A stretch of 48,894 bases of DNA from a virus (taxonomy: Duplodnaviria > Caudoviricetes). Numbering within the stretch: position 1 is the first letter of the stretch; every line of letters begins with the position of its first letter. Positions 5,079 to 48,894 of this stretch are shown in pieces. Made by a program: the position numbers and the translations under genes. The notes beneath the pieces were generated by a model. It was not told the DNA's origin, searched no databases, and saw only the letters and a program-made list of their open reading frames with translations. The stretch lies in the IMG/VR virus record IMGVR_UViG_3300046060_000025, positions 1 through 48,894 of that record. One strand, 5' to 3'.

Positions 5079-5097
5079 CGCCGCGCCTCAATATACG

Positions 5098-6994: not shown

Positions 6995-6996
6995 CC

Positions 6997-7659: not shown

Positions 7660-8062
7660 CGCGACCGAGCGGGAGTTAGTCGAGCGGCTGGAGGCCGAGG
7701 GCTACGCCGCGATGCGGGCGCCCTCCTCGGGGAGCGCCACGACGCGGGACCTCCCGGACGTCCTCGCCGGCCAGCCGGCGCCGGGCGGCGACCGGCCGCG
7801 CTCCCGCGCCCTCGTGTTCGAGGAGAAGACGAGTTCAGGCGACCCTATCTACGTCAAGAAAGCCGAGGCCGACGCCCTCATCCGGTTCGCCGAGGCTTTC
7901 GGCGCCCGTCCCTACATCGCCGTCCGGTGGAAGGCTAACTCGTTCCGTGACACGACCATCTACGTCAGCCATCCACACGAGATGTGGGAGACGGAGCAGT
8001 TCTGGCGGGCGAAACGCGAGGACTGCGTGGACGGGTGGGCCGCCCTGCCGGCCGTCCTCTAG
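7652..8062 (+). CDS. hjc: Archaeal Holliday junction resolvase
   Basis: G..ERELV..LE..GYAAMRAPSSGS...PDVLAG...FEEK (PD-(D/E)xK), LIRFAEAFGARPYIAVRW. Confidence 0.9.
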   Translation: MGDATERELVERLEAEGYAAMRAPSSGSATTRDLPDVLAGQPAPGGDRPRSRALVFEEKTSSGDPIYVKKAEADALIRFAEAFGARPYIAVRWKANSFRDTTIYVSHPHEMWETEQFWRAKREDCVDGWAALPAVL

Positions 8063-8520
8063 TCGTCGTCCGCACCCCCGCCGGCCTGCGTGCCGCTCTC
8101 CGAACTCCAGGGACCGTCGGGGTCGCCCTGGCCGCCGCCGCGGTAGAAACCGGCCGGCGGTGGCGGCACGTCGTCCACGTCCTCGACGGTTCGGGGCATC
8201 CGCACGTCGTCGTGTTCCTCGGCCATGACCTCCAGGACCGCGTTCATCTTCTGGTCCAGCTTGTAGAGCTGGACGTGGGTCTGCCGGGTGTGCTGTTTCT
8301 GCCGGTCCGACAGTTCATCGAGCCGCTTCTGCGTGGTCTGGACGAACCCGTAATCCGTGTCGTCCCCGCGCGCCCCGAACAGCCGTTGTCTGAGGCCGTT
8401 GACGCGGCCGCGGTTCTGGAGTATCATCGTCCCGTAGGCGGTGAGGACGACGAGGACGATGCTCCCGAGCGTACCGATGATTTGCCAGGCCTCAACGACG
8501 GGCTGGACGGACTGGAGCAA
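8059..8520 (-). CDS. Single-TM coiled-coil protein, last gene of the late operon (holin-like candidate)
   Basis: TM WQIIGTLGSIVLVVLTAYGTMIL followed by a helical segment. Confidence 0.7.
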   Translation of the reverse strand: MLQSVQPVVEAWQIIGTLGSIVLVVLTAYGTMILQNRGRVNGLRQRLFGARGDDTDYGFVQTTQKRLDELSDRQKQHTRQTHVQLYKLDQKMNAVLEVMAEEHDDVRMPRTVEDVDDVPPPPAGFYRGGGQGDPDGPWSSESGTQAGGGADDD

Positions 8521-9420
8521 CTATCCGCCCTCCGGCGGTTGGACCTTCGGCTGTGAGAGGTTCGGATGGAACTCGTAGACGTACCGCGTCCTCGTCACAT
8601 TATCGTAGCCGGCGTTCATCGGCGTCGTCCTATCCTCCCCCCACTTCACGACCTCGTTCCCCACCCGGTCCAGATGCTCGTAGCCCAGGCAATGCCCGAT
8701 TTCGTGGAGTATTGTGGTGATGCCGGCCGTCGGGCCCGAGAAATCGCCGGTCCCCCCGACGTTCCGAATCGGGTCGCTCGGGTCGCGGCCCCACCCCTCG
8801 AAGAACCCCGGTTGCACCCAGCAGCCATAGCCGACGCCCGCGCCGTACACCGAGCCGTAGGCCTTCAGCGCGACGTTCGCATCCTTCGCCATCTCGTCGT
8901 TCGACCAGTACCAGGACCCGAACTCGTCGTAATCCATCCCCGCCGGAATCGGGTCGGAATGGACCACGACGTCGGCGTCGTATCCCTCGGACGTGAACGA
9001 GGCCAACAGCGCGTATTCTACGAACTTCCGCGCTTGATGGCACGCCCGCTCGACCCACGGCTCCTCCTCAGGCCAGTACAGGCGGATTTCGATGGTGTTT
9101 TTGGGGTCGTCCGGTGGGTCGGGCCACGGAGTCGCGTCGGACACCCCGATGAACGGCGGCCACGCTACGTTCGACGTCTCCTCGCTACTCCGGTTCACGT
9201 CCGCGTCCGGTTCTTCGTTCTCCGTGTCGGTATCGCGTGGGTCCTCGTCCGGCGTCTTAACGACCTGCGTGTCCGCGCCACCGCGCTCCTCGCCCGAGTC
9301 GTCTGTCGGGGGGTCAGGCCCGGCGTCGGTGTCGTTCTGTTGGCTGGCCTCCCGCTGGTCGGGTTCGGTGGTGGTGCGTGTGAGGAGCGAGCGGAGGACA
9401 CGGACGAGTCGTTGAATCAT
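8521..9420 (-). CDS. Metzincin-type zinc metalloprotease
   Basis: HEIGHCLGYEH (HExxHxxGxxH) with a downstream TPM Met-turn; long acidic N-terminal linker. Confidence 0.85.
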   Translation of the reverse strand: MIQRLVRVLRSLLTRTTTEPDQREASQQNDTDAGPDPPTDDSGEERGGADTQVVKTPDEDPRDTDTENEEPDADVNRSSEETSNVAWPPFIGVSDATPWPDPPDDPKNTIEIRLYWPEEEPWVERACHQARKFVEYALLASFTSEGYDADVVVHSDPIPAGMDYDEFGSWYWSNDEMAKDANVALKAYGSVYGAGVGYGCWVQPGFFEGWGRDPSDPIRNVGGTGDFSGPTAGITTILHEIGHCLGYEHLDRVGNEVVKWGEDRTTPMNAGYDNVTRTRYVYEFHPNLSQPKVQPPEGG

Positions 9421-9463
9421 CTATACGCCTGGTTTGCCCCCTGTCTCCTACTACCTTTCGCCG

Positions 9464-10246
9464 TTACTCCGTTCCGGTAAACCCGCCCGACCCGGACGCG
9501 ACGGCGGACCCTGCCCGGTACAGCGTCCAGTCAAACTCCCCAGCAACGAAGTCCACATTATCCCACTCCATTACATACCACACTCCGATATCCGCGACGT
9601 GTCCCGTATCTATACCCGCCGTAGACCCGCTATTCGTCTGTATAGCGACGGGGTCACCCGGAATCGCCTCTCGTTGTGGAACGACTTGAAAGACAGTGTC
9701 CCCGCTAGAGTCTCCAAACCCCGCGAACGTGTCACCGACAGCTTCCTGTTCTATATAAAACGCTACGCGATAGGGGCCGGCGGAAACTGTCGCACTTATT
9801 GGTTCGCCCTCCGCGTCGAGGTCCCGGTACCACGTCGTCGAGGTCCCCGTAAACTGTACCTCCATGCGGGCGGACTCCGACCCCTCGTTCGCGTGTTTAG
9901 AAGATTGGGAGATAGTAGTATCCGTCGCGGTTGTTACCTTGTTCCACGAGGAAAACGGGGTTGTCCGCTCGAAACTCTCATCTACCTTTACGTCGCCGTC
10001 CTCCAGTATCTCGTAGTCGTCATAATGGATTAGTTTCTCGCCACCCCCCGCATCAGCGTCATGTCTGAGGTTTAGCGTCTCTATCGGATAGAGATTCGAC
10101 CCGATACCGGTCCCCGACTCGAATACGTAGGAGGACTTACCGTCGTTCGGAACAGGGTCCCCAGAGTGAAACACATAGTCCGTCTCCCCATGTTGCCCGA
10201 CGTCTAACGGGTCGCCCGACAGAAACACGTAGTCACTCTCAGCCAT
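9464..10246 (-). CDS. Putative tail tip/adhesin protein
   Basis: Beta-rich; three N-terminal YVFxSG repeats; follows the LamG protein; lower GC. Confidence 0.65.
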   Translation of the reverse strand: MAESDYVFLSGDPLDVGQHGETDYVFHSGDPVPNDGKSSYVFESGTGIGSNLYPIETLNLRHDADAGGGEKLIHYDDYEILEDGDVKVDESFERTTPFSSWNKVTTATDTTISQSSKHANEGSESARMEVQFTGTSTTWYRDLDAEGEPISATVSAGPYRVAFYIEQEAVGDTFAGFGDSSGDTVFQVVPQREAIPGDPVAIQTNSGSTAGIDTGHVADIGVWYVMEWDNVDFVAGEFDWTLYRAGSAVASGSGGFTGTE

Positions 10247-10248
10247 AG

Positions 10249-11346
10249 TTACGTCGATAACGTGATGGCGTTCACGGTCGGCGCCGTGGTCGTATCCGTC
10301 GTCGAGAGTTTCGGTTTCACTCGAAAGTCCGTGTGGCTATTACTCCAGGTGAGGGAGTAGGAGGCGGACCCGCCGAGTGATTGGGAAACGGTTTCCTCGC
10401 TGGCGGTCGCCGGGGACCCAATCACGTCCAGGGTAATAGACTGGCCGTTGAGCGAGTAGACTAAGTCCTGTAGGTCCGGCTTCACGGCAGTTGAGAAGGA
10501 CTTACTGGCAGTGGTCAGGTTCCCGCCCGAGCCGGTATCATACAGCGCCTGAACCTCGCTCGATGACAGCACTCGGTCGTAGAACCGGAGTTGAGCGATT
10601 TCTCCAGGGAAGCTCCCGTCCGAACGTTGGCCGTATTTCCCGACGTCGAAGTCGGCAGTCACTGTGTTGTCGAGTGCGTCACCGTCGGAGTCGGTGTTTT
10701 GGGCGGGTGTCCCGTTTACGAATATTTGTTGCCCGTTCGAGGTACTGCTGGTAACCGCGACGTGTATCCAACTGTTAGTCCAGGCCGTATCCCAGCCGGT
10801 CGTAAGCCGACCCCCGCCGTTGAGGTCGCCCCAGTCCCAAAACAGGGTGTCGTAGCTGTCCCAGGGTGCGTGAACGTTGATTCGGTTCCCCGAGCCGGAT
10901 TTCCAGAACACTACCGACCGATGGTTGGTGTCGTTTCCATCCACCTGCTGCCACCAGGAGAAGGTGATTCCGTCCGTGGGGAGCCATGAACCGGTGCTGG
11001 ATATTCGGGCGTAGTCGTCCGCCCCGTCCCAGGTTGCGGCCGGCTGGCCGAACGGGCCAGTGGTGTTATTGAGCGCGACTCCAGAGACCGAGAGGTCGTG
11101 CGCGTTGGCCTGTTCTACGAAGGTAGTCCCGCTGGTCTCTGTGAGCGGCCAGAAGGCCAGGAGGCTGGTCCCGCCCCGGTCGACGCTCGGGTACCCAAGC
11201 TCGATACGGTTTGCCTGCCGGCCGAGGTAGCCTTCGTGAACAACCCCGGCGTCACTGACCGCGTTATCCCAGTCCGTGGCCGTCTCCCACGTAATTGTTT
11301 GCGAGAACAACACATTGGCGATATCCCCGAGCGACTCTATCCCCAT
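10249..11346 (-). CDS. LamG/concanavalin-like lectin domain virion protein (putative receptor binding)
   Basis: LLAFWPL.E..G...ITFSWW...WIHVAVT...IFVNG...FPGEIAQLRFYDRVLSSSEVQALY. Confidence 0.85.
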   Translation of the reverse strand: MGIESLGDIANVLFSQTITWETATDWDNAVSDAGVVHEGYLGRQANRIELGYPSVDRGGTSLLAFWPLTETSGTTFVEQANAHDLSVSGVALNNTTGPFGQPAATWDGADDYARISSTGSWLPTDGITFSWWQQVDGNDTNHRSVVFWKSGSGNRINVHAPWDSYDTLFWDWGDLNGGGRLTTGWDTAWTNSWIHVAVTSSTSNGQQIFVNGTPAQNTDSDGDALDNTVTADFDVGKYGQRSDGSFPGEIAQLRFYDRVLSSSEVQALYDTGSGGNLTTASKSFSTAVKPDLQDLVYSLNGQSITLDVIGSPATASEETVSQSLGGSASYSLTWSNSHTDFRVKPKLSTTDTTTAPTVNAITLST

Positions 11347-12854
11347 CAGATGACCTCTCCGATGCCGCCGGCGGCAATGTCCTGCGACGACCCGGACCCG
11401 GCGTTGAAGTTGCCGTTGTCTACACCGATGGCGACCGTTTGGGCGGCTCCGGTGGTGTTCGCGTACGAGCCGAGCGGCTCCCCCGTCTCGTCGTCGTACA
11501 CCGTGGAGCCGTCACCCGAGATGAGCGTGGTTTGGCTCGTCCCGGTCCCGTCGCCTGCTAAGGTAGCGATGGTGAGGTCGCAGCCAGAGGGTGCGGGCTG
11601 GCCGTCCGCGAGTGTGAGGTACGCCTGCGTGACCTCAATCGTCCCGCCGTCCAGCACCTCGGTTAGGTAAACGGTCCCGAAGTTCCCCGCAGCCACACTC
11701 CCGCTGTCGTCCGCCACGATGGTTTCGTTCGTGACGCCGGACCCGGACCCGCCGCCGCCCGAGGTGTACCATTGACCGCTGCCGGCGTCCCCGACGACGA
11801 CGGTGGCGCCATAGTCCGAACCGACCGTCGTGGTGGCCCCACCGTCGATTCCCTCCCCGCCCTCGGTATCGACGGTGATGGCGTTCGAGGCGGCAGCGCC
11901 CCCGATATCCACGACGGTGACGACGTTCCCGGTCGCTAAATCGGCGCTGGCGAGCGTGATGGTCACGGCCCCGCCGGTGGTGTCTACGAGGAGGACTTCT
12001 TCGCCGCTCGTGGTCGTGTTCGTAGAGACGGACGCAGTTGCTCGTTCGTCGTCGAGTTTCCCACGAGCGATGGTAGTGGTGCCGGAGATATCGGCGTCGA
12101 GGATGGTGCCGTCCGTTATCTCGCTGCTCGTAATCGTATCGACCGAGATGGTGGCGCTCCCCCCGAGGCCGATGGCCGCGTTCGTGGTCGTGAGGCCGGT
12201 GCCGGCGTTCGCGGTGATGGTATCGTTTGCGAGGTCGCCGTTTTGGAACGGGTAGCCGTTGACGTTCGCGATGCTCGCCGGAGCGTAGGGGCTGGCGAGG
12301 TCGCCGATAGCGAGCGGGTACGCGCTGATTTGGGCGGCCTCCTGGAGGTCGTCCAGCGCGGCGTCGACGTTCGAGACGCCGTAGGTCCCCGTGCTGTCAT
12401 CGTAGTGGACTTCCTCGGCCTCGTTACTGAATTGGGCGCGCCAGTTGAGGACGTCGCTATCGGGGACGTCGGTGGCGTTCTGCGGGACGTAGACGAACGC
12501 GAGCGGCTCCTGGTCGCCGGTCACGTCCGGCGGCTCGGGGTCGGCCTGGGCGGTGCCCTCGGTGACGCCGGAGGCGGCGGTGCCGGTGTCGAACCAGACG
12601 GTGTCCCAGCGGTCGTGGCTCCCGTCGCCGGCCGTGAGGGTGTGGGTGTCGGCGGTGCCGAGGGTGTATTCGGAGTCGCTGGCGAAGTAGGTCCCGGCGG
12701 CGACCTGTATCTCCATCGCGTTCTGGGTGGCGGTAACCTCGAAGTCGCCGGTGGCGACGATGCCGTTGCCGGCGAGGGACTCCGTTACTGACCGCCACAT
12801 GGTTTCGAACAGCGGCTGGCCCTGGGGCCATTCGTAGGCGTCGGCGGTCGGCAT
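11346..12854 (-). CDS. Tail fibre protein
   Basis: 502 aa, T/G/D/A-rich; N-terminal MEIQVAAG...RWDTV...PLAFVYVP; LVDTTGGAVTITL...VVDIGG..SNAITV fibre segment. Confidence 0.8.
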   Translation of the reverse strand: MPTADAYEWPQGQPLFETMWRSVTESLAGNGIVATGDFEVTATQNAMEIQVAAGTYFASDSEYTLGTADTHTLTAGDGSHDRWDTVWFDTGTAASGVTEGTAQADPEPPDVTGDQEPLAFVYVPQNATDVPDSDVLNWRAQFSNEAEEVHYDDSTGTYGVSNVDAALDDLQEAAQISAYPLAIGDLASPYAPASIANVNGYPFQNGDLANDTITANAGTGLTTTNAAIGLGGSATISVDTITSSEITDGTILDADISGTTTIARGKLDDERATASVSTNTTTSGEEVLLVDTTGGAVTITLASADLATGNVVTVVDIGGAAASNAITVDTEGGEGIDGGATTTVGSDYGATVVVGDAGSGQWYTSGGGGSGSGVTNETIVADDSGSVAAGNFGTVYLTEVLDGGTIEVTQAYLTLADGQPAPSGCDLTIATLAGDGTGTSQTTLISGDGSTVYDDETGEPLGSYANTTGAAQTVAIGVDNGNFNAGSGSSQDIAAGGIGEVI

Positions 12855-32855: not shown

Positions 32856-34517
32856 CTACGATTTACTCACCATCGGGCCGCTCGTCGTCGCCGTGTGCCG
32901 GTCCGTGTGAGCCATGTATCGCATGGCGTCCGCGGAGTGGTTGTCGTGCGTCTGCGGCTCGTCCCGGGCGTCGTCCTGCCAGACGTAGCCCCGTATCTCG
33001 CCGAGGATATCGCCGGGTTTGGACTCGGTGGCGAGGTGTGTATCCTTCCGGTGGCACCGCGCCCCGTTCACGAAATACAGGCCGGCGCGGTCGTGTTCGT
33101 CCGGCCGCAATAGCCGCTTCACCGTCTGTATCCCGTCCGCTACGTCCTTCCGCGCCGTCGTCGTCCGGAACCGTCGCCAGTCGCCGTCGTCCAGGTCGGG
33201 GTCGGCCTCGATGAGGCTACGGGCGCCCTCCAGCCAGGCGGCGCGGTCCCCGCTGTCGTGGTCGGCGTAGACGGCCCGGACGTTCGGGACCTCGTACGCG
33301 GCCATCTCGCCGAGCGCCTCGACGGCGGCGTCGTCCGGGAGCGTCCGCGTCTTCACGTACTCGCGGTACAGGACGTACCCGTACTCGTCGGTATCGGCCC
33401 ACCACTGCACGACGAGCGGGTCCGGCCGGTAGCCCCAGTCGATGCTCATGACGATGTCCATGTCCGCCGGCGGGTAGAGCCGGGCCGGGACGTAGGCCTC
33501 GGCGTCGTCGGGGTCGCCCGTCTGAACGCCGCGCTCGGCTCGCATCGCCTGAAGGTCCGTGACGGTCGAGTCCGGGATGTGCCACTCGCCCGGGAGCATA
33601 TCCACCGCGTCTAGCGGCTCCAGCGCGTGGATGGACTCGCTGAACTCGTCGTAGATGAGGCCCTCGTACCCCACCCACTCGCCGCCGATGTACCGCTCGG
33701 CGTCCGTCCCGGCAAACTGCGCCCGGAGCCGCGGCAGGTAGTCGTCCGGGTTGTGCACGTTATCCGCGGCGCTGCCCTCGTAGACCGCGCCCACGCCCTG
33801 CTCGTAGAACCGGCGGTAGAGCCAGTGGTTCGGGCCGGCGGGGTTCGTCGCGGAGAAGATTTGCCGCGTCGGGAGTTCGGGCTGCCAGGGATTATTGAGG
33901 TGCGTGAGCCGGAGTCGGCCCTGGAGCATTTCCCAGTCCTTCTCCGTCACCTCGATGCCCTCGTCCACGCCGACGAAGCCGAGGTTCATGCCGGCGATTT
34001 TCTCCGGCATCTCGCCGGGGCGGCTCCCCGTGTTCAGGCCTTCGTAGTAGAGTTCGCTCGGCGGTGTAAACTCGACGGTCCGGTCGCCGCAGTCCGGGCA
34101 GACACACCGAGAGTCGTTGCGGAGACGGTCCCGTTTGTTGAGGGGGAGGATGCGCGTGGACTGCCAGTCGCAGTCCCGGCAGTAGATGGTTGGATAGTAC
34201 GGTGACTGGACGTAGATGACGTGCCGGCCCTGGTTGTGCGCCACGATGTAGGCGTCCGGAATAACTTCCTCCAGGAGGACCGTGAGCGTCGTGTTCGTAA
34301 TCGAGGCAAAGGTCTTGCGCGTCAGGAGGCCGCGGTTCCCCGGGTAGTTCGTGAGGTTGAGGTACGCCTTCTCGCAGAGGGCGCGCGTCTTCCCGGCGCC
34401 GAACGCGCCACTTCCGAGGACCTCGTCGTGTTCATCGTAGATAAATCCCTCCTGCCAGTCGAGCGGCTTGAACGCCCAGTCCGTGACGCCGCCGCCGCCG
34501 TCCGGCGCGGCGCTCAT
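32856..34517 (-). CDS. terL: Terminase large subunit
   Basis: Walker A GAFGAGKT, Walker B VGVDE, ATNP coupling motif, RNase H-like SIDWGY and NHSADAMRY. Confidence 0.95.
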   Translation of the reverse strand: MSAAPDGGGGVTDWAFKPLDWQEGFIYDEHDEVLGSGAFGAGKTRALCEKAYLNLTNYPGNRGLLTRKTFASITNTTLTVLLEEVIPDAYIVAHNQGRHVIYVQSPYYPTIYCRDCDWQSTRILPLNKRDRLRNDSRCVCPDCGDRTVEFTPPSELYYEGLNTGSRPGEMPEKIAGMNLGFVGVDEGIEVTEKDWEMLQGRLRLTHLNNPWQPELPTRQIFSATNPAGPNHWLYRRFYEQGVGAVYEGSAADNVHNPDDYLPRLRAQFAGTDAERYIGGEWVGYEGLIYDEFSESIHALEPLDAVDMLPGEWHIPDSTVTDLQAMRAERGVQTGDPDDAEAYVPARLYPPADMDIVMSIDWGYRPDPLVVQWWADTDEYGYVLYREYVKTRTLPDDAAVEALGEMAAYEVPNVRAVYADHDSGDRAAWLEGARSLIEADPDLDDGDWRRFRTTTARKDVADGIQTVKRLLRPDEHDRAGLYFVNGARCHRKDTHLATESKPGDILGEIRGYVWQDDARDEPQTHDNHSADAMRYMAHTDRHTATTSGPMVSKS

Positions 34518-36324: not shown

Positions 36325-36861
36325 CTATTCCTCGTCGCCGTCCGTTAGCGGCACGTCCACGCCGTCCTCCAGGCCCGCCGTCTCCGGGTCCAGGCCGACC
36401 ATCTGCTCCGTCTCGACGCCCTCGAAGCGCGTCAGGTCCACGCCGACGAGCGCCTTCCGCTCCGTCGCCTCGATGGAGGCGTCCAGGTCCATCTCCATGC
36501 GGTCCGGGGCGCGCTCCTGCTGCCCCGTCTCGAACAGCCAGTCGTTCCACGACTCCAGCAGCTCCTTCGCCGCCATCCACTCGTTGTCCTCCGCCTTCGC
36601 CTTGATAGCCTTCCGGTAGACGACGCTCGTGATGAACTCGGCGTCCGACGATAGGTCCTCGCGGATATCGTCCTGGAGCGCCTGGATATCGCGCGTTACC
36701 GTACTCGAGTGAACGTCGTACCGCTCCGCGAAGTGCTTCCGGCTCACCATGTCCGGGTGGCCCGCCTCGATGATGACGTCCAGCAGCTCCGCGCGCCGTT
36801 CGTTGTACGTGTAGTCCACCGGGTCCGTATCCTCGGGTATCTCGACGTTCTTGTGGCCCAT
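36325..36861 (-). CDS. Putative terminase small subunit (HTH)
   Basis: SRKHFAERYDVHSSTVTRDI HTH, helical oligomerisation region, upstream of terL. Confidence 0.65.
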   Translation of the reverse strand: MGHKNVEIPEDTDPVDYTYNERRAELLDVIIEAGHPDMVSRKHFAERYDVHSSTVTRDIQALQDDIREDLSSDAEFITSVVYRKAIKAKAEDNEWMAAKELLESWNDWLFETGQQERAPDRMEMDLDASIEATERKALVGVDLTRFEGVETEQMVGLDPETAGLEDGVDVPLTDGDEE

Positions 36862-37041: not shown

Positions 37042-37323
37042 CTATGACTCCCCGGGTTGCGGCGTATCTATCCACTCGACGCGGGTCCGGCCGCCGTGGC
37101 CGTGGACCTCGAGGCAGTCCTCGATGCCGGCCTCGCTGTGGTAGGCGGCGAAGCCGTTCCGCTGCGTTGCGACGCCGTCGGTCCGGTCGTTCCGCCACTG
37201 GAGGTCGACGGCGCCGTCGCCCCAGCAGACGCCGTAGGCGACCGTGCCGGTGCCGGAGACGCCGGATTCGTCCTCGGTCCGGACGAGGCGGAAGCGACGC
37301 GGTCGGTCGGAGTGGTCGGGCAT
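37042..37323 (-). CDS. Conserved phage hypothetical protein
   Basis: RRF.L.R.ED.SGVSGTG.VA.GV.W.DG...HGHGG.T.VEWID, a motif I recall from bacteriophages. Confidence 0.75.
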   Translation of the reverse strand: MPDHSDRPRRFRLVRTEDESGVSGTGTVAYGVCWGDGAVDLQWRNDRTDGVATQRNGFAAYHSEAGIEDCLEVHGHGGRTRVEWIDTPQPGES

Positions 37324-37363: not shown

Positions 37364-38221
37364 CTACTCGTTCCGGCAGGACTCGGGGACGATTTTCGGG
37401 ACGCTGGTCCGCCAGTTCACGCGGTGGTGAATGCGGGCGTCGTTCCGGTCGACCAGCTCCTGGAGCGTCACGGACGATGGCGAGTAGAGGACCGTATACA
37501 TACTCTTGATGTACGTGCCCTCATCAAGATATTTCTCCGTCAGGCCACCATCCTTTTGCTGCGTATCGTTTTGGTCGAATGAGACGAAATTCACGGTGAG
37601 GAACACCTTCCCGAGCTGCTGGGCGCGGACGTAGGTCGTTACGTCCTCGTTCACGGCGCCGCGGAAGGCGAACGGGGCGTCCGTCCGGCAGATGAACGTG
37701 TTCATGGCCTTCCGCTTCGCCTGGACGTGCTGCGCGAGCTGCGCCTCCGCACCGCCGATGAAGTCCCCGCCCTGGGCGAAGCAGACGGTATCGAGGTCGG
37801 CGCGCTCCAGGTAGTCGATAGCGTTATCGAACGTCGCGTCGAGGTCCGGGACGTACTCCGTCCCGATGTAGTCGAAGGCCTCGTTGAAGCGGTAGCCGAA
37901 CCAGTTGTAGTCGTCGTCAAGCTGGATGAAGTAGTCGTAGCCGAGGTCCCGCGCGATGGCCCACGACTGGAAGCGGGCGTAGACGACGCCGGCCTTCCGT
38001 TCGGCGTTAATCCCCCGGTCGAACTCGGGCTGCGTCTCGCCCTTATCGACGTAATACACGTGGTCCGCGCCGTATGCGTCGGTGTACGGCTCGACGTCGT
38101 CCGGGTGGTCCACGACCATGACCCAGGGGCCGTCGTAGCCGAAGCGGTCGAGGGCGTCGAGCGTCTGCACCTCGCCGGCGCGGTCGTGCGTCAGGATGAG
38201 TGCAACGAAGTCATGCCGCAT
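37364..38221 (-). CDS. TAGT/GREB1-like glycosyltransferase (GT-A fold)
   Basis: ILTHDRA, VYAR, YFIQLDDDY (DxD), AQGGDFIGG, RKAMN, NEDV, TQ..GG.T..Y...GTY.KS, RIHH...W...PKI. Confidence 0.8.
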   Translation of the reverse strand: MRHDFVALILTHDRAGEVQTLDALDRFGYDGPWVMVVDHPDDVEPYTDAYGADHVYYVDKGETQPEFDRGINAERKAGVVYARFQSWAIARDLGYDYFIQLDDDYNWFGYRFNEAFDYIGTEYVPDLDATFDNAIDYLERADLDTVCFAQGGDFIGGAEAQLAQHVQAKRKAMNTFICRTDAPFAFRGAVNEDVTTYVRAQQLGKVFLTVNFVSFDQNDTQQKDGGLTEKYLDEGTYIKSMYTVLYSPSSVTLQELVDRNDARIHHRVNWRTSVPKIVPESCRNE

Positions 38222-39059
38222 CGCCGGTGACGCCCTCCAGTTCCGTCTCCGCGAAGTCCACGAAGCCCTGCTCGATGGCCTGGTCGACGTCCACGATAAC
38301 GAGCGTCAGGGCCTCGAACACCGCCTGGACCTCCGGTGAGGCGTGGGCGTAGTATTCCGCGATGTGCTCGTAGTCGAAGACGATGTGGCGGTGGGCCGCG
38401 AGACGGGCGAACGCCGCCACGTCCTCCGGGAGGTCGGCGTCGTCGATGACGGCTAGTAGCTCCTGGAACCGCTCGTCGTCGTACAGCGCCGTAAGGGCCG
38501 GCGGCTCGTCCTGCGTCGGCTCGTACTCGGGCGTCTCGATTTTGTCCGTGTATTTCACGTCCATCCCGCCGCCGGCGAGAAGGTCCTGGACGTCGTCCGG
38601 CGCGAGGTCCCGCTCCGCCATCTCGTCCAGGAGGCCGTCCACGTCCTCGTCACGGGCGGCCGTGAGTTCGCGGAGCGGCTCGTCCAGGCCCTCATTGACG
38701 AGCGTGTTGTACTCCTGCGCGTCCAAGAGGTCGTCGTGCGAGCCGTTGATTTTATTCAGCTCCTGCCGGATGACGCGCCGCTGGGCGTCCGTGAGGTCGT
38801 ACCGCTTGATGGGGACCTCCGAGAGCCCGATTTCCTGCGCCGCCTTCCAGCGGTGTTCACCGTCCGCAATCAGGCCATCCTCGTCCACGATGATGGCGTT
38901 TCCTATCCAGCCGCGTGTCCGAATCCGGTCGCAGAGGACGTCGAACAGGTCGTTCGGCATGGTATTCGGGTTGTCATCGTCCACCGATAGCGTTCCCGGG
39001 GCGACCGTGCCCGTCTCGATGGGCTGCGGCAGGTCGTCGAGCGTCAGGTCGTCCGTCAT
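38211..39059 (-). CDS. ParB/Srx N-terminal domain fused to a GT-associated helical domain
   Basis: ATG 39059; NPN...GW...IIVD...IADGEHRWKAA; C-terminal YTDKIETPEYEP...AAHRHIVFDYEHIAEYYAHASPEVQ...AIEQGFV. Confidence 0.85.
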   Translation of the reverse strand: MTDDLTLDDLPQPIETGTVAPGTLSVDDDNPNTMPNDLFDVLCDRIRTRGWIGNAIIVDEDGLIADGEHRWKAAQEIGLSEVPIKRYDLTDAQRRVIRQELNKINGSHDDLLDAQEYNTLVNEGLDEPLRELTAARDEDVDGLLDEMAERDLAPDDVQDLLAGGGMDVKYTDKIETPEYEPTQDEPPALTALYDDERFQELLAVIDDADLPEDVAAFARLAAHRHIVFDYEHIAEYYAHASPEVQAVFEALTLVIVDVDQAIEQGFVDFAETELEGVTGDAA

Positions 39060-39111
39060 GGGCCAGTCTACTACCGGGCTACGGCGGAGGTCGTGTTGAA
39101 GGTTCGGGGCG

Positions 39112-39903
39112 TTAGCCGTCCTTCTGCCAGGCCCGGACGATGTTACTCCAGGTCCCGTCGACCTGCGTGTAGTCCGCCCGAAGATGGTCGAGGATACGGC
39201 GTGAGACGTCCCGGCCGGTCTGGATATGGAGGGGCGTATAGACGGAGTCCGCGTCGTCCGCGAAGTCGTTAAACGTCCACTGCGTGAACAGGAGGCCGTC
39301 CGGCGCGAGGCTCGCTGTGAATGCGTCGATGACGCGCTCCGGGTCCGGGAGGTGTTCCAGCACATCAACGCAGATGATGGCGTCCCACGTCTTATCGACC
39401 TCGCGGAGGTCGAATGACGGCTCATCAATCCGAATCATCGGCGTCTCTCGTGCGCGATACGCCGCGCGGTCCTCGTAGAAGTCGGCGACGACGCCGTCGA
39501 CGTCGGCGTACCACGCCTCGTACTCATTGGAGAGGTACAGGGGGACGTCCCCGACGCCCGCGCCGTAGTCGAGGACGGAGTCTGCGCCGTACTCACGGAG
39601 CCAGCGGTGATACTGCCGTATCTCGGATACCTGCTCGACGTTCCAGAGCATGAGTTCGGGGATATACCAGTCGTTCGATTGGTAGAACTGGAAGACGTCA
39701 GCGGGCGTCTCCGGCGACGCGTCCAGCCAGGCGTCCCGCGTCTGCTCCTGCCAGTATTCTAGGTCGAGGTGTACCTCGAACGGCCGGCCGAGGCTATGCA
39801 TCTCGTCGAACTTATTACGCCTGTACTGCTCGATGCGGTTTGTGAACCCGCCGCCGAACCAGAGGTCGTGACGGATATCGGCGAGGTCGATACCATTCGT
39901 CAT
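39112..39903 (-). CDS. Class I SAM-dependent methyltransferase
   Basis: VLDYGAGVG, WDAIICVDVLEHL, LAPDGLL; no DPPY/PC DNA-MTase motif; ATG 39903 overlaps the upstream stop. Confidence 0.88.
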   Translation of the reverse strand: MTNGIDLADIRHDLWFGGGFTNRIEQYRRNKFDEMHSLGRPFEVHLDLEYWQEQTRDAWLDASPETPADVFQFYQSNDWYIPELMLWNVEQVSEIRQYHRWLREYGADSVLDYGAGVGDVPLYLSNEYEAWYADVDGVVADFYEDRAAYRARETPMIRIDEPSFDLREVDKTWDAIICVDVLEHLPDPERVIDAFTASLAPDGLLFTQWTFNDFADDADSVYTPLHIQTGRDVSRRILDHLRADYTQVDGTWSNIVRAWQKDG

Positions 39904-40673
39904 GAGCCAGTCCCCGGGCGCGCCGGTGTTAAAGGGCCGGCCCCACACGCGGAGCAGAGCGTTAGTTGCGCGTCGTCCTCACGGGCGAAATCCGCCTTCT
40001 CCCACTGGTACCCGGCCCACCGCGATTGTGCCCGCCCGGCGTCCTCGGGGACGTCGAGGTGCCGGAGCCAGTCCGCGTGGGCCGGGTAGCCGGCGGCCTC
40101 CAGGTCGAGTAACTCCATCGGGTCACCGAAGCAGCCGCAGAAGCAGTCGGCGGAGCGGCCTATCGCCTCGCTGACCGGCGAGACCGGGAGGTCGAACGTC
40201 ACCCGGTACTGCCGGACGCGGTCGTCGGTCCAGGCCGCGAGGGGTGCGCGCCAGTCCCACCGGCCGCCACTCCGTTCGCCGTCCGGCTCGACGTGTCGCA
40301 TCCGGCGGTCGCTCTCCCGCCGGCGTATCCCGGTCCAGAAGGTGCAGTCCCCGTCCGTCTCGCTCGCTATCTCGCAGAGCTGGCGGTCCTTGAGCCGCTG
40401 ATACATGAGGAAGTGGCGGGACGGGCCGGGGTAGCCGTATTCGGCCACGATGGCCGGGTACGACGCCGGCGTGGCTCGTATTTCGACCGGCCAGTCGTTC
40501 GACTCGCACCAATTCCGGACCCACGCGCCGTTCTCGTGGACCGCGCCGTCCCCGGGGCCGGTCCCGGTATCGAGATAGACGACGCGCTCCGCGGGGCCGA
40601 AGACCATCGCGGCGTGCGTGGCGGCGACCGAATCCGCGCCGCCGGAGCAGAGCGCGATATGCCGGTCAGCCAT
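39900..40673 (-). CDS. PAPS reductase/DndC-family PP-loop protein
   Basis: SGGADS PP-loop, DTG, GIRRRES..R, PLAAW, CFCGCF. Confidence 0.85.
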   Translation of the reverse strand: MADRHIALCSGGADSVAATHAAMVFGPAERVVYLDTGTGPGDGAVHENGAWVRNWCESNDWPVEIRATPASYPAIVAEYGYPGPSRHFLMYQRLKDRQLCEIASETDGDCTFWTGIRRRESDRRMRHVEPDGERSGGRWDWRAPLAAWTDDRVRQYRVTFDLPVSPVSEAIGRSADCFCGCFGDPMELLDLEAAGYPAHADWLRHLDVPEDAGRAQSRWAGYQWEKADFAREDDAQLTLCSACGAGPLTPARPGTGS

Positions 40674-41339: not shown

Positions 41340-41945
41340 TTAGATAAACCGGCCGTCGTCATCGCGCTCTTTTTCCTCCGTATGAAGGGATTGATGTTCG
41401 CTCGGGTCTATCGGTTGGAGGTTCGCTTCGCGGTTATCCCACGGAATATCGTTTACGTGGTGGACGTGATTACCGACGACCGCGTCGTACCCAAACCACG
41501 CGACTGCAGCGAGCCGATGGACCCGGACTTGACGCCCGTCTGCACCGCTTATCCACCGTTCGTACCCGTCCCTGCGTGTGTAATAATAGGTATATGGGAC
41601 CCATTTTGGGTTACGGCGTCCGTTATAGTCCCGGTTATCTATTGGAGAGCGCCGCGAAATATCATATTCTTGCATTCGGCGACGTACTGTATTCGCATGA
41701 ATTCCGAGACGCTTACCTACCTCCTTTAATGTGAGTCCCTTACCGTGGTAGAGCCATCGAATTATCACGGGGTTTCCGCCCGATTTCTGCCTTGGGCCCG
41801 GCTTCCGTCGGCGGATATCGTGTTGTTGCATCCGCCTCGATATTGTTGAATTACTCACCCCGACCCGCTCCGCTATCTCCGCCTGCGTCAGGCCCTCCTC
41901 GTGGTATAGCCGCCGGAGCGTCTCGGCGTCGACGTCCGGCGTCAC
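41340..41945 (-). CDS. HNH homing-type endonuclease with two N-terminal HTHs
   Basis: LYH.EGLT..E twice; VHRLAA...HVHHVN...DNREANL...SEH..LH; AT-rich. Confidence 0.88.
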   Translation of the reverse strand: MTPDVDAETLRRLYHEEGLTQAEIAERVGVSNSTISRRMQQHDIRRRKPGPRQKSGGNPVIIRWLYHGKGLTLKEVGKRLGIHANTVRRRMQEYDISRRSPIDNRDYNGRRNPKWVPYTYYYTRRDGYERWISGADGRQVRVHRLAAVAWFGYDAVVGNHVHHVNDIPWDNREANLQPIDPSEHQSLHTEEKERDDDGRFI

Positions 41946-42403: not shown

Positions 42404-42490
42404 GGTGTAAGTCTTGTCTTAACGCTTCCACTAGGCAACGCGCCCTAGGCGCGTTGCCGTACGTGGAAGCGTATAGACTTGTCTTACACC
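42404..42490. repeat. Long imperfect inverted repeat, AT-rich flank
   Basis: GGCAACGCGCC-CTA-GGCGCGTTGCC core, plus ACGCTTCCAC/GTGGAAGCGT and GGTGTAAG/CTTACACC arms. Confidence 0.85.
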
Positions 42491-43666: not shown

Positions 43667-45040
43667 CTACTCGTAGACGACGTGGTCGCCACAACGCTCG
43701 CACTCGTGGAAGTCGAGGACGCCCGCCTCCTCGGCCGCCGCCGCCGTCTCCCGGTAGTCGCAGCCCTGGCAGGAGACGTACTCGACGTCGCCGGCCCACG
43801 CGGCCACCTCGGCCTCCCGGAACGGGCAGCCGTCGAGGTTGTCCTTGACTATCTGCTGGACCGTGTTCCGCTCCGTCTCCCGCTGGTCGTAGAGCGCCGC
43901 CACCACGTCCGTCTCGAAGGCCGTGACGACGGCGTCATCCGTCCCGGCCTGCATGAGCGCGTAGGCGCTCTGCGCCACGGAGATGAGGCTGGAGGTCGGA
44001 ATCCCGGAGCGGACCTCGCTGGTCGCGTCCGCCGCCTGCGCCCGGACCTGGTTCGCCGTCTCGACAATGAGGTCGCTAAGCCGGGCGCCGGCGGGCGTCC
44101 GCTCGGTGAGGACGTCCGCCTCCCGCTGCGGGAAGTTGACGCCCAGGTAATCGACGTTGAAGCGCCCGGCGTTGCTGAGCCGGCGCTTGACTGCGAAGTC
44201 GATATCCTGGACCCCGTGGTAGTCGCCGCTCCCCTTCGGGTTGATGGTGGAGACCACGATGAGGTTCTGCCGGACGCCCCGGACCTGCTCGCCACCGCGC
44301 TGGTCGAGCGTGACCTCGCACCGGGAGTCCAGGGCGCTCATGAGCGTGGAGTGAACCTCGGGCCGGGCGCGGTTCGCCTCGTCCACGATGAGGACCACCG
44401 GCCCCTCGCGGGACGCGAGGAGCGCCTTCGTGAGCGGGCCGTCGTTCCAGACCGTCTCGGTGCCGCCGTCGCCGCTGGAGCGGACGGTCGCCTTCCCGAG
44501 GAGGCTCGCCGGACTCATGTCGTACGTCATCTGGAGCGTGACGACGGGCCACCCGCGCTCGGCGGCGAGCCACTCCGCCAGCGTCGTCTTGCCGCAGCCG
44601 GTGGGGCCGCCGAGGAGGAAGGCCGGCTCCTGGTTCGTGGCGTGCCGGGCGTCGACCTTCGCGGTTATCTCGTCCCACTCGCCGTTACTCGGGATGTATT
44701 CGTGCGTCTCGTCCTCGCTCGGGACCATCGTGCTGAAGTCGTAGTCCCGCTCGACGGGCGGAACGCTCTCGGGGAGGTCGTTCGTCATCTCGGGGACGGC
44801 CGTCGTCGCCTCGCCGACGTCCGGGAGGTCCTGCGGCGCCGCGTCCGCCTCGTCGTCGGCCGCCTCGGGGAGGAAGTACGTGTAGGACCGGCCGTCGCGT
44901 TCCCGCTCGACCCGGCCGGCCTCCCGCAGCTTCTTGATATGGTGGCCGACCGTGTTCGGATGCTCGTCGAGGGCGTCCGCTATCTGCTGGGTGGTTGCCG
45001 CGCCGTGCGCTAGTTCGTCGATGACGTCATGCGTTTCCAT
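43667..45040 (-). CDS. MoxR/CbbQ/CobS-type AAA+ ATPase with N-terminal wHTH and C-terminal Zn ribbon
   Basis: GPTGCGKT, WNDGPL, LIVDEANRA, STINP..DYHG..IDFAVKRR; N-terminal TTQQIADALDEHPNTVGHHIKKL..GRV; CQGC..CERC. Confidence 0.92.
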   Translation of the reverse strand: METHDVIDELAHGAATTQQIADALDEHPNTVGHHIKKLREAGRVERERDGRSYTYFLPEAADDEADAAPQDLPDVGEATTAVPEMTNDLPESVPPVERDYDFSTMVPSEDETHEYIPSNGEWDEITAKVDARHATNQEPAFLLGGPTGCGKTTLAEWLAAERGWPVVTLQMTYDMSPASLLGKATVRSSGDGGTETVWNDGPLTKALLASREGPVVLIVDEANRARPEVHSTLMSALDSRCEVTLDQRGGEQVRGVRQNLIVVSTINPKGSGDYHGVQDIDFAVKRRLSNAGRFNVDYLGVNFPQREADVLTERTPAGARLSDLIVETANQVRAQAADATSEVRSGIPTSSLISVAQSAYALMQAGTDDAVVTAFETDVVAALYDQRETERNTVQQIVKDNLDGCPFREAEVAAWAGDVEYVSCQGCDYRETAAAAEEAGVLDFHECERCGDHVVYE

Positions 45041-45110
45041 CGTGGGTCACCTGCTACACCCTCCAGTACGCAGGGGTTTCCTATAAAGGTTTCCCTCCGG
45101 GAAAGTTCCG
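45041..45110 (-). promoter_or_regulatory. Conserved viral promoter/leader, copy 3
   Basis: GGAAACCTTTATA-N24-GTAGCAGGTGACCCACG-ATG; 28 bp identical to copy 1 and a 17-bp upstream block shared with copy 2. Confidence 0.85.
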
Positions 45111-46400: not shown

Positions 46401-46823
46401 TTACCGGCCTCCGCTACCGCCGTGATTTTCGCTCATGTGTTCACTATGTGATTCGTAAACCTAGATATTCGCCGGGCGGTTATCCCAGCGTAATCCGTTC
46501 CGGTGGTGTACCACCTGCTCCTCGCGGAGTATCCCGTACTCCGCTACGGCGAGGAGGCGGTGAACGTAGACGGTTGCTCGCCCGTCTGCGGGGTGGCTGC
46601 TATCCCACCGCTCATAGCCGTTCGGTCCGGTACGGAACGTCGCGTATTCCGTTCGGTGCGTCTCCCGCTCCGTCCTGGCGTCGATGCCCTTACGGGCCAT
46701 GAACCTCGACACGGTAGACTGGTCTACGCCGAACCGTTGCGCGATATCGGCCTGGTCTAACCTATCCTCATAGTACAACTCGGCTACCTCTGCTGGCTCA
46801 GTGAACGGGTCAGGTCCGGGCAT
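46401..46823 (-). pseudogene. HTH-HNH endonuclease with a premature TAG
   Basis: VHRLLA...VVHHRNG..WDNRPANI*VYESHSEHMSENH; the frame stays open after TAG (46461-46463) to TAA at 46401 and aligns with the paralogue's DNREANLQPIDPSEHQSLH. Confidence 0.7.
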
Positions 46824-48082
46824 TATCGGCCACCGCCGACGTTAAGTTGCGATTCATATATCCGGATGAGGCTCTCGGCAATATCGTCCTCGTCGGTGCA
46901 GACGTAGCCGCCCTCGCCGAACATCTTCTGCATGAGGCTCTCGTCCGCGCCGGGCTGGATACCCATGCCTATCACGACGTACCCATCCTGCCGGTACTCC
47001 CGTACTTCCTCCTGCGCCTCCGTCGTCGCCTGCCCGGCGTTGTAGGTCCCGTCGGCCATCATCTGCGGCTGGCCGTCCGTGATGACGACCATGAGGCGTT
47101 CGGACGCGCTGACCTCGTCGCAGTACGCCTTCGCCTGCCGCATCCCGGGCGTAATCGGGTCCTGGTAGTCCGGCCACACCGCGTCGAGGTGCCGCCAGCT
47201 AAACTCCTCGTCCGGGAGCGTAATCGGCATGAGGACCTGGTTCTCCTTGCCGCGCTTCTCCGTACTGGTCCAGGCGTTCGCCGTGAAGTCGTCGCCTATC
47301 TCCCGGCAGGCGATGGCGAGCGCGCCCAGCGCGCTCTTGGCCTCCTTGACGACGCCCTTCATGGACCCGCTCATGTCCATGGAGACGGTGACGGCGCGGT
47401 CGCCCGGCTCCGCCTTCCGCTTCCGCTCGTAGAGCCGGTCCTGCGCGCTCGTGTCGCCGGCCACGAGGTCCGCTACGGCGTCCTCGTTGAGCCGCTCGCC
47501 GTCCTCGTCCGGGACCCACCGGTCGTCGGTCTTGAACTGCCGGAACGCCTCGACGATGCGCTCCGCCTGCCCCGTCTCGTTAAGGTGGTCCCGGACGGCC
47601 TGGCTCCCGACCTCTATGTAGGCGTCGTCCTCGGGCTCGACGCGCCCGGAGTCGAGTCGCCGGTCCCGGGTCCGGCGGTCCTGCTCCAGGTCCGTGTCGG
47701 CCCGGTCCTGCTCGCGCTGGACCTGCTCGTACTGTGCCTCGAAGCCGTCCAGCTCCGTGACGTCGACCGTCTCATCCTCGTCTAGCTCCCACTCGAGTTC
47801 GGAGCGGGCGTCCTCGCTGAGGTCCTGCTCGCTCGTCTCGTAGTCGTCCGGGAGGTGTTCGTCCTCGCCGTGGTAGTCCACCTTGCTGAGGTCGGCCGTC
47901 CGTTCGCGGTCGTCGGACTCCGCGACGGCGTCCGGGGTATCGTCCCCGTCGGCGCCCCGGGCGCCGCCCTCAGGCGCGGCCTCGGTTTCGACCTCGGCGC
48001 CGGCGGCCTGTAGCTTCTCGATTTCGGCGGCGGTGAGGTCGGTTGCGATGACCTCGCCCGTCTCCGTGTTGATTGCGTCCAT
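46823..48082 (-). CDS. vWA (MIDAS) domain protein, CobT/NorD-like C-terminal part
   Basis: GERLNEDAV, VSMDMSGSM, MVVITDGQP, VIGMGI. Confidence 0.9.
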   Translation of the reverse strand: MDAINTETGEVIATDLTAAEIEKLQAAGAEVETEAAPEGGARGADGDDTPDAVAESDDRERTADLSKVDYHGEDEHLPDDYETSEQDLSEDARSELEWELDEDETVDVTELDGFEAQYEQVQREQDRADTDLEQDRRTRDRRLDSGRVEPEDDAYIEVGSQAVRDHLNETGQAERIVEAFRQFKTDDRWVPDEDGERLNEDAVADLVAGDTSAQDRLYERKRKAEPGDRAVTVSMDMSGSMKGVVKEAKSALGALAIACREIGDDFTANAWTSTEKRGKENQVLMPITLPDEEFSWRHLDAVWPDYQDPITPGMRQAKAYCDEVSASERLMVVITDGQPQMMADGTYNAGQATTEAQEEVREYRQDGYVVIGMGIQPGADESLMQKMFGEGGYVCTDEDDIAESLIRIYESQLNVGGGR

Positions 48083-48152
48083 CGTGTATCACCTGCTACA
48101 CCCTCCAGTACGCACCGGCTACCTAAAAAGGTTTTCCTCCGGGAAAGTTCCG
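48083..48152 (-). promoter_or_regulatory. Conserved viral promoter/leader, copy 2
   Basis: GAAAACCTTTTTA-N24-GTAGCAGGTGATACACG-ATG; 46 bp identical to copy 1. Confidence 0.85.
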
Positions 48153-48222
48153 GGTATCCGGTCGCCCCGAGGCCGCTCGCCCGACGTAACCGAGGATACC
48201 GCTCCGTGACCGCCGCGGCGGG

Positions 48223-48894
48223 CTATTCGACCCGGATGTGTGACGCGTCGTCCCGGCCGCCCGTCAGTTCGACAACCGCCCGCGTTCCGCCGGTACTACT
48301 GCCGCCGCCCCCCTCGCCGTCGTCCGCACCGCCGGCGCCGTCCGCGTCCCCGTCCTCACCGTCGTCTGCCTCGTCCGCGGCGCCGCTCCCGCCACCGCCG
48401 GCGGCTGCGGTCGGGTCCTCGCCCGACGTCTCGTCCGGCGCTTCGGCCTCGACCTCACCTTCGGCCTCGGCGGCCGCGGCGTCCGCGGGGTCGAAGTCCT
48501 CGTCCGCCGGCGCGTCCTCGGGGTCGAAGTGGGCGCGCTCCAGGTCCGCCATGAGGTCCTGGATGAGGTCTTCGAGCCAGTCCGGGAGGTCCGGCCGCTT
48601 CGGGATAACGTCCGTAAGGCGCTCCGTGACCTCGGCGGCGTACTCCTCGCGGCGGTCGGGGTCCGCGGCCCGCTTGACGCGCTCGCAGTATACCGCGACG
48701 TCCTGGAGCGCCTCGCGGACCGCCGGGTCGGCGTCCTGGATGCCCTTGACGCGCCCGGAGAACGCTAGCTGGATGAAGCCCTGCACCGCCTGGTCGCGGG
48801 CGTCGTCTAGCTCGCCCATCGGCGGGCGACGGTCGTCGTCCGTCATCTGCGCCTGAACCTGCCAGTCGTGGACGGGCTTGAGGCCGCGGTAGTC
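48223..48894 (-). CDS. C-terminal part of the HExxH protein (joined from 537..84)
   Basis: In frame across the 55-bp overlap; helical region followed by a D/E/G/A low-complexity tail. Confidence 0.85.
   Translation of the reverse strand, partial: DYRGLKPVHDWQVQAQMTDDDRRPPMGELDDARDQAVQGFIQLAFSGRVKGIQDADPAVREALQDVAVYCERVKRAADPDRREEYAAEVTERLTDVIPKRPDLPDWLEDLIQDLMADLERAHFDPEDAPADEDFDPADAAAAEAEGEVEAEAPDETSGEDPTAAAGGGGSGAADEADDGEDGDADGAGGADDGEGGGGSSTGGTRAVVELTGGRDDASHIRVE
48840..48894 (+). repeat. 55-bp terminal direct repeat, right copy
   Basis: Identical to 84-138. Confidence 0.95.

Follow-up and report, generated by a model that had tools for sequence, protein, structure and literature searches.

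Background

ParB-Tls DNA-modification loci are defined by a ParB-N gene and a modifying enzyme lying just upstream of the terminase (PMC4738411), and they are predicted to modify DNA at packaging (PMC4738411, PMC8256090). DNA is the substrate of those phage glycosyltransferases from TET clusters that have been characterized (PMC8256090), one phage T-dioxygenase is activated by a ParB-like protein (PMC13229309), and the methylase M.phiCh1-I methylates 5-50% of the GATC sites in virus DNA (PMC6210493). Here, a locus of this type is described in the IMG/VR record IMGVR_UViG_3300046060_000025, which was analysed over its whole stretch of 48,894 nt (the window). The record is a HHTV-2-like halovirus with long syntenic DNA matches to Haloarcula virus HHTV-2 and an estimated completeness of 92%. 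The locus comprises a glycosyltransferase (GT), a ParB-N fusion protein, an S-adenosylmethionine (SAM) methyltransferase (MT), and a PAPS-reductase-like protein, encoded as follows (aa, amino acids).

37364..38221, minus strand: TAGT-family GT-A glycosyltransferase, 285 aa, the core gene (PF20691, E 1.6e-30; PHROG 842, E 4e-61)
38211..38570, minus strand: helical C-domain of the ParB-N fusion protein, aa 164-282, family unnamed (14 invariant columns in 31 sequences; AF2 pLDDT 79)
38571..39059, minus strand: ParB-N (ParB/Srx-fold) domain of the same protein, aa 1-150, with a DGEHR motif (profile matches solved ParB/Noc proteins, E 1e-10)
39112..39903, minus strand: class I SAM methyltransferase of small-molecule type, 263 aa, an accessory insertion (PF13489, E 5e-13)
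39900..40673, minus strand: PP-loop ATP pyrophosphatase of the halovirus PAPS-reductase-like family, 257 aa (PF01507, weak at E 8.5e-6)

The locus is of a type already known, a ParB-terminase modification cassette with a TAGT gene that is also present in HHTV-2 and is here joined by a methyltransferase. The ParB and GT genes very probably form a two-gene core of which the PAPS-like gene is independent. The reading developed below, to which we give slightly less than an even chance, is that the GT, bound by the ParB-N/C-domain protein, adds a sugar to viral DNA around packaging, that the inserted MT methylates this sugar, and that the PAPS-like gene is a passenger.

A sequence-only reading had described four co-oriented genes in two overlapping pairs and proposed that together they add a methylated sugar to DNA with PP-loop activation or sulfur chemistry. 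The layout is as described: all four open reading frames (ORFs) are intact and on the minus strand, the PAPS-like and MT genes overlap by 4 nt (ATGA), the ParB and GT genes overlap by 11 nt, and 52 nt separate MT from ParB. The GC content at third codon positions of the four genes (0.84-0.90) is near that of the core genes (0.90-0.94). Pfam and PHROG also bear out the domain calls, with PF02195 for the ParB-N domain below the Pfam cut-off. From the proposed pathway, a packaging-linked glycosyltransferase module survives, as does the methylated sugar by analogy only, and the four-gene scheme finds no support.

The glycosyltransferase and its ParB-N partner

The GT belongs to the TAGT family (PF20691) at 107 bits against a curated cut-off of 27.5, and its DxD-type motif is intact. 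The motifs LDDDY (101-105), RKAMN (170-174), NED (191-193), and RIHH (263-266) are invariant or nearly so across 31 sequences, LDDDY being invariant. Searched against solved structures, the GT profile found no relative (best E 0.11). Matches occur in 34 phage records, which include HHTV-2 and phages of E. coli, Lactobacillus, Vibrio, and Nocardia. In annotated phage regions a ParB-like gene lies immediately 5' of the GT gene, and in temperate phages the terminase gene lies immediately 3'.

To describe this pairing, 202 loci (cited by L numbers) were assembled, 43 from viral contigs, 80 of 89 from metagenomes, and 79 from prokaryote genomes (the best 80 of 92). They are redundant, and the 199 GT loci collapse to 130 clusters at 80% identity. 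The partner C-domain is directly upstream in 100 of the 102 GT-anchored loci with room for it, and L217 and L218 hold 5'-truncated GTs. Conversely, of 75 C-domain-anchored loci that extend far enough, 74 have the GT downstream; the exception, L236, proves to be a pair on inspection. A TerL-like gene follows closely downstream in 66 of 83 clusters with room, a rough count as TerL groups were labelled from representatives. The C-domain, rather than ParB-N, is the constant part of the pair, and it occurs as a stand-alone gene in Vibrio phage pv27, L221, L225, and L328.

A metagenome scan with a 3-sequence GT alignment found no loci, and none of the 80 of 89 loci taken from a second scan is a high-GC halovirus. 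The GTs of low-GC saline-sediment contigs (L140-L143, L208) are sister to those of the haloviruses (support 1.0), and in L140 and L142 the terS-like gene resembles the halovirus terS candidate. Some loci hold two TAGT genes, either as two ParB+TAGT pairs (L011, 2269-3619 and 5259-6861) or as tandem GTs (L030, 500-2270; L253, 3581-6161), which suggests disaccharides.

The partner is a fusion protein of 282 aa (38211-39059) with matches to PF02195 (E 2e-4) and to PHROG 498 and 620 (E 1e-23 and 8e-21). Over aa 11-147, the ParB-N domain is 57% identical to HSTV-1 gp52 and 49% identical to phiCh1 ORF94, which is M.phiCh1-I; identity to HHTV-2 gp21 is lower, at just 35% over aa 29-90. Solved ParB proteins match just the N-terminal ~95-135 profile positions of the partner, and Pfam finds neither the helix-turn-helix (HTH) domain nor the neighbouring ParA that would mark a chromosome-segregation ParB. 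ParB-N is likely a targeting or activating module.

The C-domain is modelled as all-helical, and 12 of its invariant columns are listed: Y7, P14, Y16, F54, R61, H62, A71, Y74, D94, A98, E100, and G102. Structure comparison gave no Foldseek match at E<=0.001 and a best VIA Z of 3.8, and the ESM Atlas returned just unnamed viral clusters, under 0.9. Complex prediction from 31-row alignments gave the C-domain and GT an ipSAE of 0.87 (best of three controls 0.00) and the partner a pLDDT of 89, and the runs shared at least 99% of contacts. The ipSAE mark used was reached by 116 of 157 solved pairs and 2 of 215 mismatched pairs, a calibration that is only rough for our own alignments. The C-domain is thus predicted to be a GT-binding subunit that forms a GT/C-domain heterodimer, which the model supports without demonstrating it.

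The slot before the terminase and the acceptor

Downstream of the GT gene lie the following minus-strand genes.

37042..37323, minus strand: 93-aa ORF of unknown function between the GT gene and the terS candidate (PHROG 7499; 77% identical to a HHTV-2 gene sited elsewhere in the region)
36325..36861, minus strand: HTH protein, terS candidate by position (HTH_11, E 6e-4; 41-43% identical to same-place genes of HHTV-2 and HCTV-2)
32856..34517, minus strand: terminase large subunit, TerL (terminase Pfams; 68% identical to HHTV-2 TerL)

From the GT end to the HTH gene is 502 nt, with the 93-aa ORF in between, and TerL starts 2.85 kb downstream. The distance of about 0.5 kb to terS that had been read from the sequence is right; the terS label itself rests on position only, the PHROG match of this gene being to a group of unknown function. 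With a ParB-N gene and a modifying enzyme just upstream of the terminase, the window fits the definition of a ParB-Tls locus (PMC4738411).

Gene content upstream of terS varies among HHTV-2, HCTV-2, L008, and L134. The same region of HCTV-2 and L134 holds ParB::DNA-methylase genes, and phiCh1 ORF94 is also sited just before terS. Because such fusions occupy the same place, the slot appears to swap DNA-modifying cargo on a common ParB-N. The close relation of this ParB-N to HSTV-1 gp52 and to a proven DNA methylase favours DNA as the target, and the stand-alone C-domain cases pv27 and L225 show that the pair can sit among replication genes. On balance we lean towards DNA as the acceptor.

How DNA would be made ready to accept a sugar is harder to account for. 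The sequence-only reading had seen no TET/JBP, hydroxymethylase, Dpd, other Dnd, or polymerase gene, and Pfam scans of the 69 window ORFs agree, with no TET/JBP, thymidylate-synthase-like, Dpd, Dnd, DNA methylase, or polymerase gene among them. These ORFs include no 5hmC-, 5hmU-, or 5hoC-making enzyme that would place the locus with the TET/5mYOX- or ThyS-linked clusters. Across records bearing the pair, TET (PF12851) is present in 0 of 39, most of which are fragments, and a thymidylate-synthase homologue (PF00303) in 0 of 28 including this genome (10 are at least 90% complete; controls were positive in 10 of 14).

Several points weigh against a sugar on DNA. With no acceptor-making enzyme, known TAGT chemistry does not apply as is. 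Some 65% of viral GT contigs lack 5mYOX/ThyS, and Pyle et al. (bioRxiv 2023.12.21.572611) judge such GTs less likely to be DNA modifiers. The TAGT-like protein GREB1 is reported to glycosylate protein. In addition, GATC occurs once in the 48.9 kb (position 14) where about 160 copies are expected, and TCGCGA, ACGCGT, GAGCTC, CAGCTG, and AGTACT are nearly absent although no DNA methylase gene was found there; the persistent avoidance of GATC and several 6-mers implies that any sugar gives no wholesale protection. GATC depletion is uninformative on the target site, since HCTV-2, which has no GT in the region read, is depleted as well.

These observations give some weight to a protein target, in which the pair would glycosylate the capsid, tail, or packaging machinery and the MT would methylate a virion glycan. 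The lack of any hydroxymethyl-base enzyme in the records surveyed, the place of the pair at the head of the morphogenesis genes, the precedent of GREB1, and the known glycosylation of mycobacteriophage virions all agree with it. So do the surroundings of the wider viral family of the MT, which has GT-B, GT2, or epimerase neighbours in 7 of the 16 viral loci scanned and a member two genes past the capsid gene in L060. Set against this are the ParB-N domain common to DNA methylases in the same slot, the siting in replication clusters in pv27 and L225, and the membership of the GT in the TAGT family and not among the GT2/GT4 glycan polymerases. We regard a protein target as rather unlikely. A more distant alternative is that the complex acts in counter-defence on a host target or small molecule, for instance a defence protein or a nucleotide signal, in which case ParB-N would sense nucleotides. 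Domains of the ParB fold bind a range of NTPs (PMC12704722), and the missing DNA acceptor enzyme would then be no difficulty, but the linkage to the terminase across clusters would be left unexplained, and we consider this explanation highly improbable.

The inserted methyltransferase

The closest relative of the locus, L008, has proteins 85-91% identical to those of the window, and in it the PAPS-like gene is followed directly by ParB with no MT between. HHTV-2 also lacks the MT. The junction in the window carries a candidate scar.

39093..39107, minus strand: 15-nt copy of the 3' end of the PAPS-like gene, putative insertion scar (downstream of the MT stop; identical to the L008 PAPS-end sequence)

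Ahead of the MT, the second copy (39926-39940) has diverged at 3 positions, and the genome holds one other match at 3 mismatches. As a single crossover would not restore the L008 sequence, gain of the MT is likelier than loss, and the gene looks like an insertion.

No DNA methylase model (m6A, m4C, or m5C) matches the MT. Only small-molecule class I models do (Pfam, NCBIfam, PDB), which is the type it had been given from sequence, apart from a single weak PADLOC match to mad2 (E 0.003). Its clade has 6 members at E<=1e-30, and the family around this clade has 317 at 1e-10. Among 53 longer relatives picked from the best 150, 20 carry a GT or sugar-enzyme domain (five families displayed). Searches with the MT found none in phages, none by single query in viral contigs, and one locus with a halovirus profile.

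A second class I MT family (L302-L381; the L225/L253 type) is more often associated with TAGT genes. It has 278 viral matches, of which 80 loci were read; a TAGT-like gene was present in 61 of these. In 35 of 48 clusters the MT lies within 1.5 kb of the TAGT gene, and ParB/C-domain is also present in 17. The two are fused in L253 and in L374/L376, the gene order MT-ParB-TAGT recurs in L314, L324, L334, L375, and L380, and this MT family joins the present GT subfamily in six loci at four places of a 157-sequence FastTree tree. The family also spans large T4-like genomes, in which the pair has a gp46-like gene on one side and peptide deformylase on the other. The TET search that was negative in the pair-bearing records found TET in 1 of 50 records of this family.

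Other candidate tailoring genes have been met beside the GT. A third MT type precedes the pair in L028 and L045, a radical SAM gene (some with SPASM) follows the GT in 26 loci or 10 of 130 clusters (L023, L024, L031, and L035 among them) and is a candidate sugar-tailoring enzyme, and UDP-galactopyranose mutase follows the GT in 2 loci. Because MTs, radical SAM, and mutase genes recur near the GT, TAGT modules seem to recruit optional tailoring enzymes, a pattern that the window MT fits. A methylated sugar is plausible given an MT family tied to glycan enzymes and a distant MT family beside or fused to TAGTs. By this analogy the MT is likely a sugar O-methyltransferase; whether it acts on the sugar transferred by this GT is evenly balanced.

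Three results count against the methylation step. None of the 80 loci found by the MT's own profile holds this GT or C-domain. The closest viral MT relative (L052, 38% identical) is part of a cluster with ThyX, dNMP-kinase, UDG, and PolB genes, and its record has no TAGT. Finally, the window MT aligns with the second family at 18% identity and 18.7 bits, which is under many generic relatives. hhalign links it to the L225/L253-type family with a probability of 94.9 over 152 columns and a common C-terminal W-N-x-W. Placement in the same subfamily was dropped on the identity and ranking just given, and the two families are treated as analogues.

The L052 cluster is itself of note. Positions 3061-12824 of this 51-kb, halovirus-like IMG/VR record encode a thymidylate kinase, a protein whose start is FAD-binding-like (recognized by eye, with no Pfam match), a small helical protein, the MT relative, UDG-like, ThyX-like, and nuclease-like proteins, and a PolB with an intein. 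It could be a pre-replicative base-modification pathway.

The MT might instead be as unrelated to the pair as the PAPS-like gene, the pair modifying DNA and the spot upstream of terS being an insertion hotspot. Its absence from both relatives, the flanking duplication, the different setting of its closest viral homologue, and the shifting gene content of the region in HHTV-2, HCTV-2, L008, and L134 would all follow from this. Class I MTs are repeatedly found beside TAGTs or fused to them, and the MT's own family includes glycan-linked fusions; both speak for a functional link, and we hold the hotspot explanation to be unlikely.

The PAPS-reductase-like gene

The PAPS-like protein has the motifs SGGxDS, TGIRxxES, DCxCG, and LCSxC and belongs to a halovirus-rich family of 81 homologues with 4 invariant Cys; it is 37-40% identical to the HRTV-29 and HFTV1 proteins. 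Comparison with CysH models gave 27 bits against 154 (PRK02090) and 17.8 against 235 (TIGR02055), so that it does not rank as a true CysH. Against the PDB, its profile matches Cap9 (9nto) and PAPS reductases weakly (E 3e-7 to 2e-4).

The proposed PP-loop activation or sulfur chemistry finds no footing in these results. Phosphorothioation has as its core set a DndC/SspD-class enzyme, a partner ATPase, and DndE/SspB (PMC12707154). No Dnd, Ssp, or Pbe model in NCBIfam or PADLOC matches the PAPS-like protein at E<=0.05, and Pfam shows no partner gene; a DndC/phosphorothioation role was rejected on these grounds. Halovirus PAPS-reductase-like proteins have been listed merely as possible sulfur-assimilation genes (PMC8651126).

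A pathway of all four genes, with the PP-loop enzyme creating the acceptor by adenylating or thiolating either DNA or sugar, would explain their co-orientation and ATGA coupling and would give a use to the four invariant Cys. The PAPS-like gene also adjoins the pair in L008, a different PAPS-domain gene (a 409-aa family) lies directly upstream in L241, and in L355 a PAPS-domain gene is 1.8 kb from a ParB-TAGT-MT trio. However, the PAPS profile matches just 5 of 199 GT loci: L008, L241, and three at least 3.5 kb away. Eight of the 9 viral loci of the family (HRTV-29, HFTV1, and 6 more) have no GT, C-domain, or MT, which leaves L008 as the only one with the pair; HHTV-2 has no PAPS-like gene; and no Dnd partner or DndC model match was found. 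In L008 the gene carries an 85-nt frameshifting deletion that shortens the protein to 208 aa with the pair intact; the short protein is listed from two sources, and an assembly error is possible. Co-occurrence of the four genes in other viruses had been named beforehand as decisive for the pathway, and 0 of the 202 GT/C-domain loci have both this PAPS family and this MT family. The four-gene pathway was rejected on co-occurrence, HHTV-2 having ParB and GT only and L008 having no MT and a frameshifted PAPS gene, and we give it very little credence. The PAPS-like gene is likely an unrelated passenger.

Proposed mechanism and significance

In the favoured reading, the TAGT enzyme, held by the C-domain of its ParB-N partner as predicted, would use a host NDP-sugar to glycosylate the DNA of the virus once this has been replicated, at about the time of packaging. 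ParB-N would bring the enzyme to DNA or activate it there, a role in keeping with the fusion of this domain to DNA methylases found in that slot. The modification would be partial and would serve escape from host restriction. As no enzyme for a hydroxymethyl base is present, the sugar would have to be attached straight to an unmodified position, either an exocyclic amine or else a nick or end that packaging creates; this is the most speculative step. The inserted MT would likely methylate the transferred sugar. A bolder generalization is that TET-independent DNA glycosylation is widespread in viruses, with a heterodimer of TAGT and a previously undescribed helical subunit, swappable ParB-N delivery, direct addition of sugar to unmodified DNA at packaging, and plug-in tailoring by O-methyltransferases, radical SAM enzymes, and mutases, and that the present locus makes the first methyl-sugar DNA mark of an archaeal virus. 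Taken as a whole, it is tentative and somewhat doubtful.

What is new here is the predicted GT/C-domain complex, the recurrence of the MT-ParB-TAGT trio, and the tie between this ParB-N and that of a proven DNA methylase. GTs without an acceptor-making enzyme make up roughly two thirds of viral GT contigs (Pyle et al.), and the pair is a compact, conserved example of them, with carriers as far apart as haloviruses and prophages of E. coli. Should DNA prove to be the acceptor, the pair would represent sugar-DNA chemistry without a hydroxymethyl handle and would extend sugar hypermodification to archaeal viruses. The substrate of the pair is directly testable, as HHTV-2 has been isolated and its host is named. 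The predicted GT/C-domain subunit means that both genes are best expressed together, and the MT offers a natural with/without comparison.

Other features of the window

Three copies of a 60-75-nt direct repeat (528-592, 45036-45110, 48073-48152; ~90% identical) coincide with gene starts, ahead of the AAA ATPase and vWA genes. A MoxR/CobS-like AAA ATPase that has an HTH at its N terminus, and a vWA partner that is split, are encoded at 43667-45040 and 46823-48856; HHTV-2 has been described with such an arrangement. The record end matches 84-138 exactly over 55 nt, and hairpin-like inverted repeats are present at 57-103, 783-824, and 42404-42490. A pyrimidine-dimer DNA glycosylase-like gene (PF03013, 13837-14541) lies in a plus-strand island within the tail gene block. 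Of 2 HTH-HNH homing-endonuclease-like genes (41340-41945 and 46461-46823), the first lies in a low-GC stretch upstream of the four-gene cluster.

Comparison with known systems

The pathway had been thought new to archaeal viruses. The proposed chemistry aside, the ParB+GT pair is already present in a published archaeal virus genome, as gp21 (ParB-like) and gp22 of HHTV-2 (Saparoviridae). HHTV-2 shares the gene order, the 11-nt overlap, and the position before the terS candidate and terL, with 60% identity in both the GT and the C-domain. It differs from the window in its ParB-N, which is 35% identical, and in having no MT or PAPS-like gene. The annotation of gp22 is beta-glucosyl-HMC-alpha-glucosyltransferase (predicted function). 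The word "glycosyltransferase" has 0 occurrences in the available text of PMC8651126, whose tables S3-S5 may annotate HHTV-2 gp21/22, and our literature search, in a coverage that excludes most subscription papers and supplements, found no study of the ParB+GT pair.

The PAPS-like protein shares the PP-loop SGGxDS fold with DndC/SspD, the HRTV-29/HFTV1 proteins, and Cap9. Unlike DndC/SspD, it has no Dnd/Ssp model match and no ATPase, DndE/SspB, or cysteine desulfurase partner. The DNA glycosyltransferases of TET/5mYOX phages (PMC8256090; bioRxiv 2023.12.21.572611) resemble the window GT in PF20691, the DxD-type motif, and ParB and terminase neighbours. In contrast to those clusters, the window has no C5-methylase/TET or hydroxymethylase, and it has a dedicated C-domain partner and a class I MT neighbour. 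The ParB-dependent phage T-dioxygenases (PMC13229309) have, as here, a ParB-N with a C-terminal domain, no HTH, and an adjoining cognate enzyme; their partner is a dioxygenase, and no stable complex was detected there. The ParB-Tls DNA-methylase loci (Iyer 2016, PMC4738411, citing Iyer 2013; M.phiCh1-I ORF94, phiH YcdA, HSTV-1 gp52) have a ParB-N 49-57% identical to that of the window and the same place just before terS. Whereas they carry a fused DNA methylase as cargo, the window has a glycosyltransferase, and it is a separate binding domain that is predicted to hold it.

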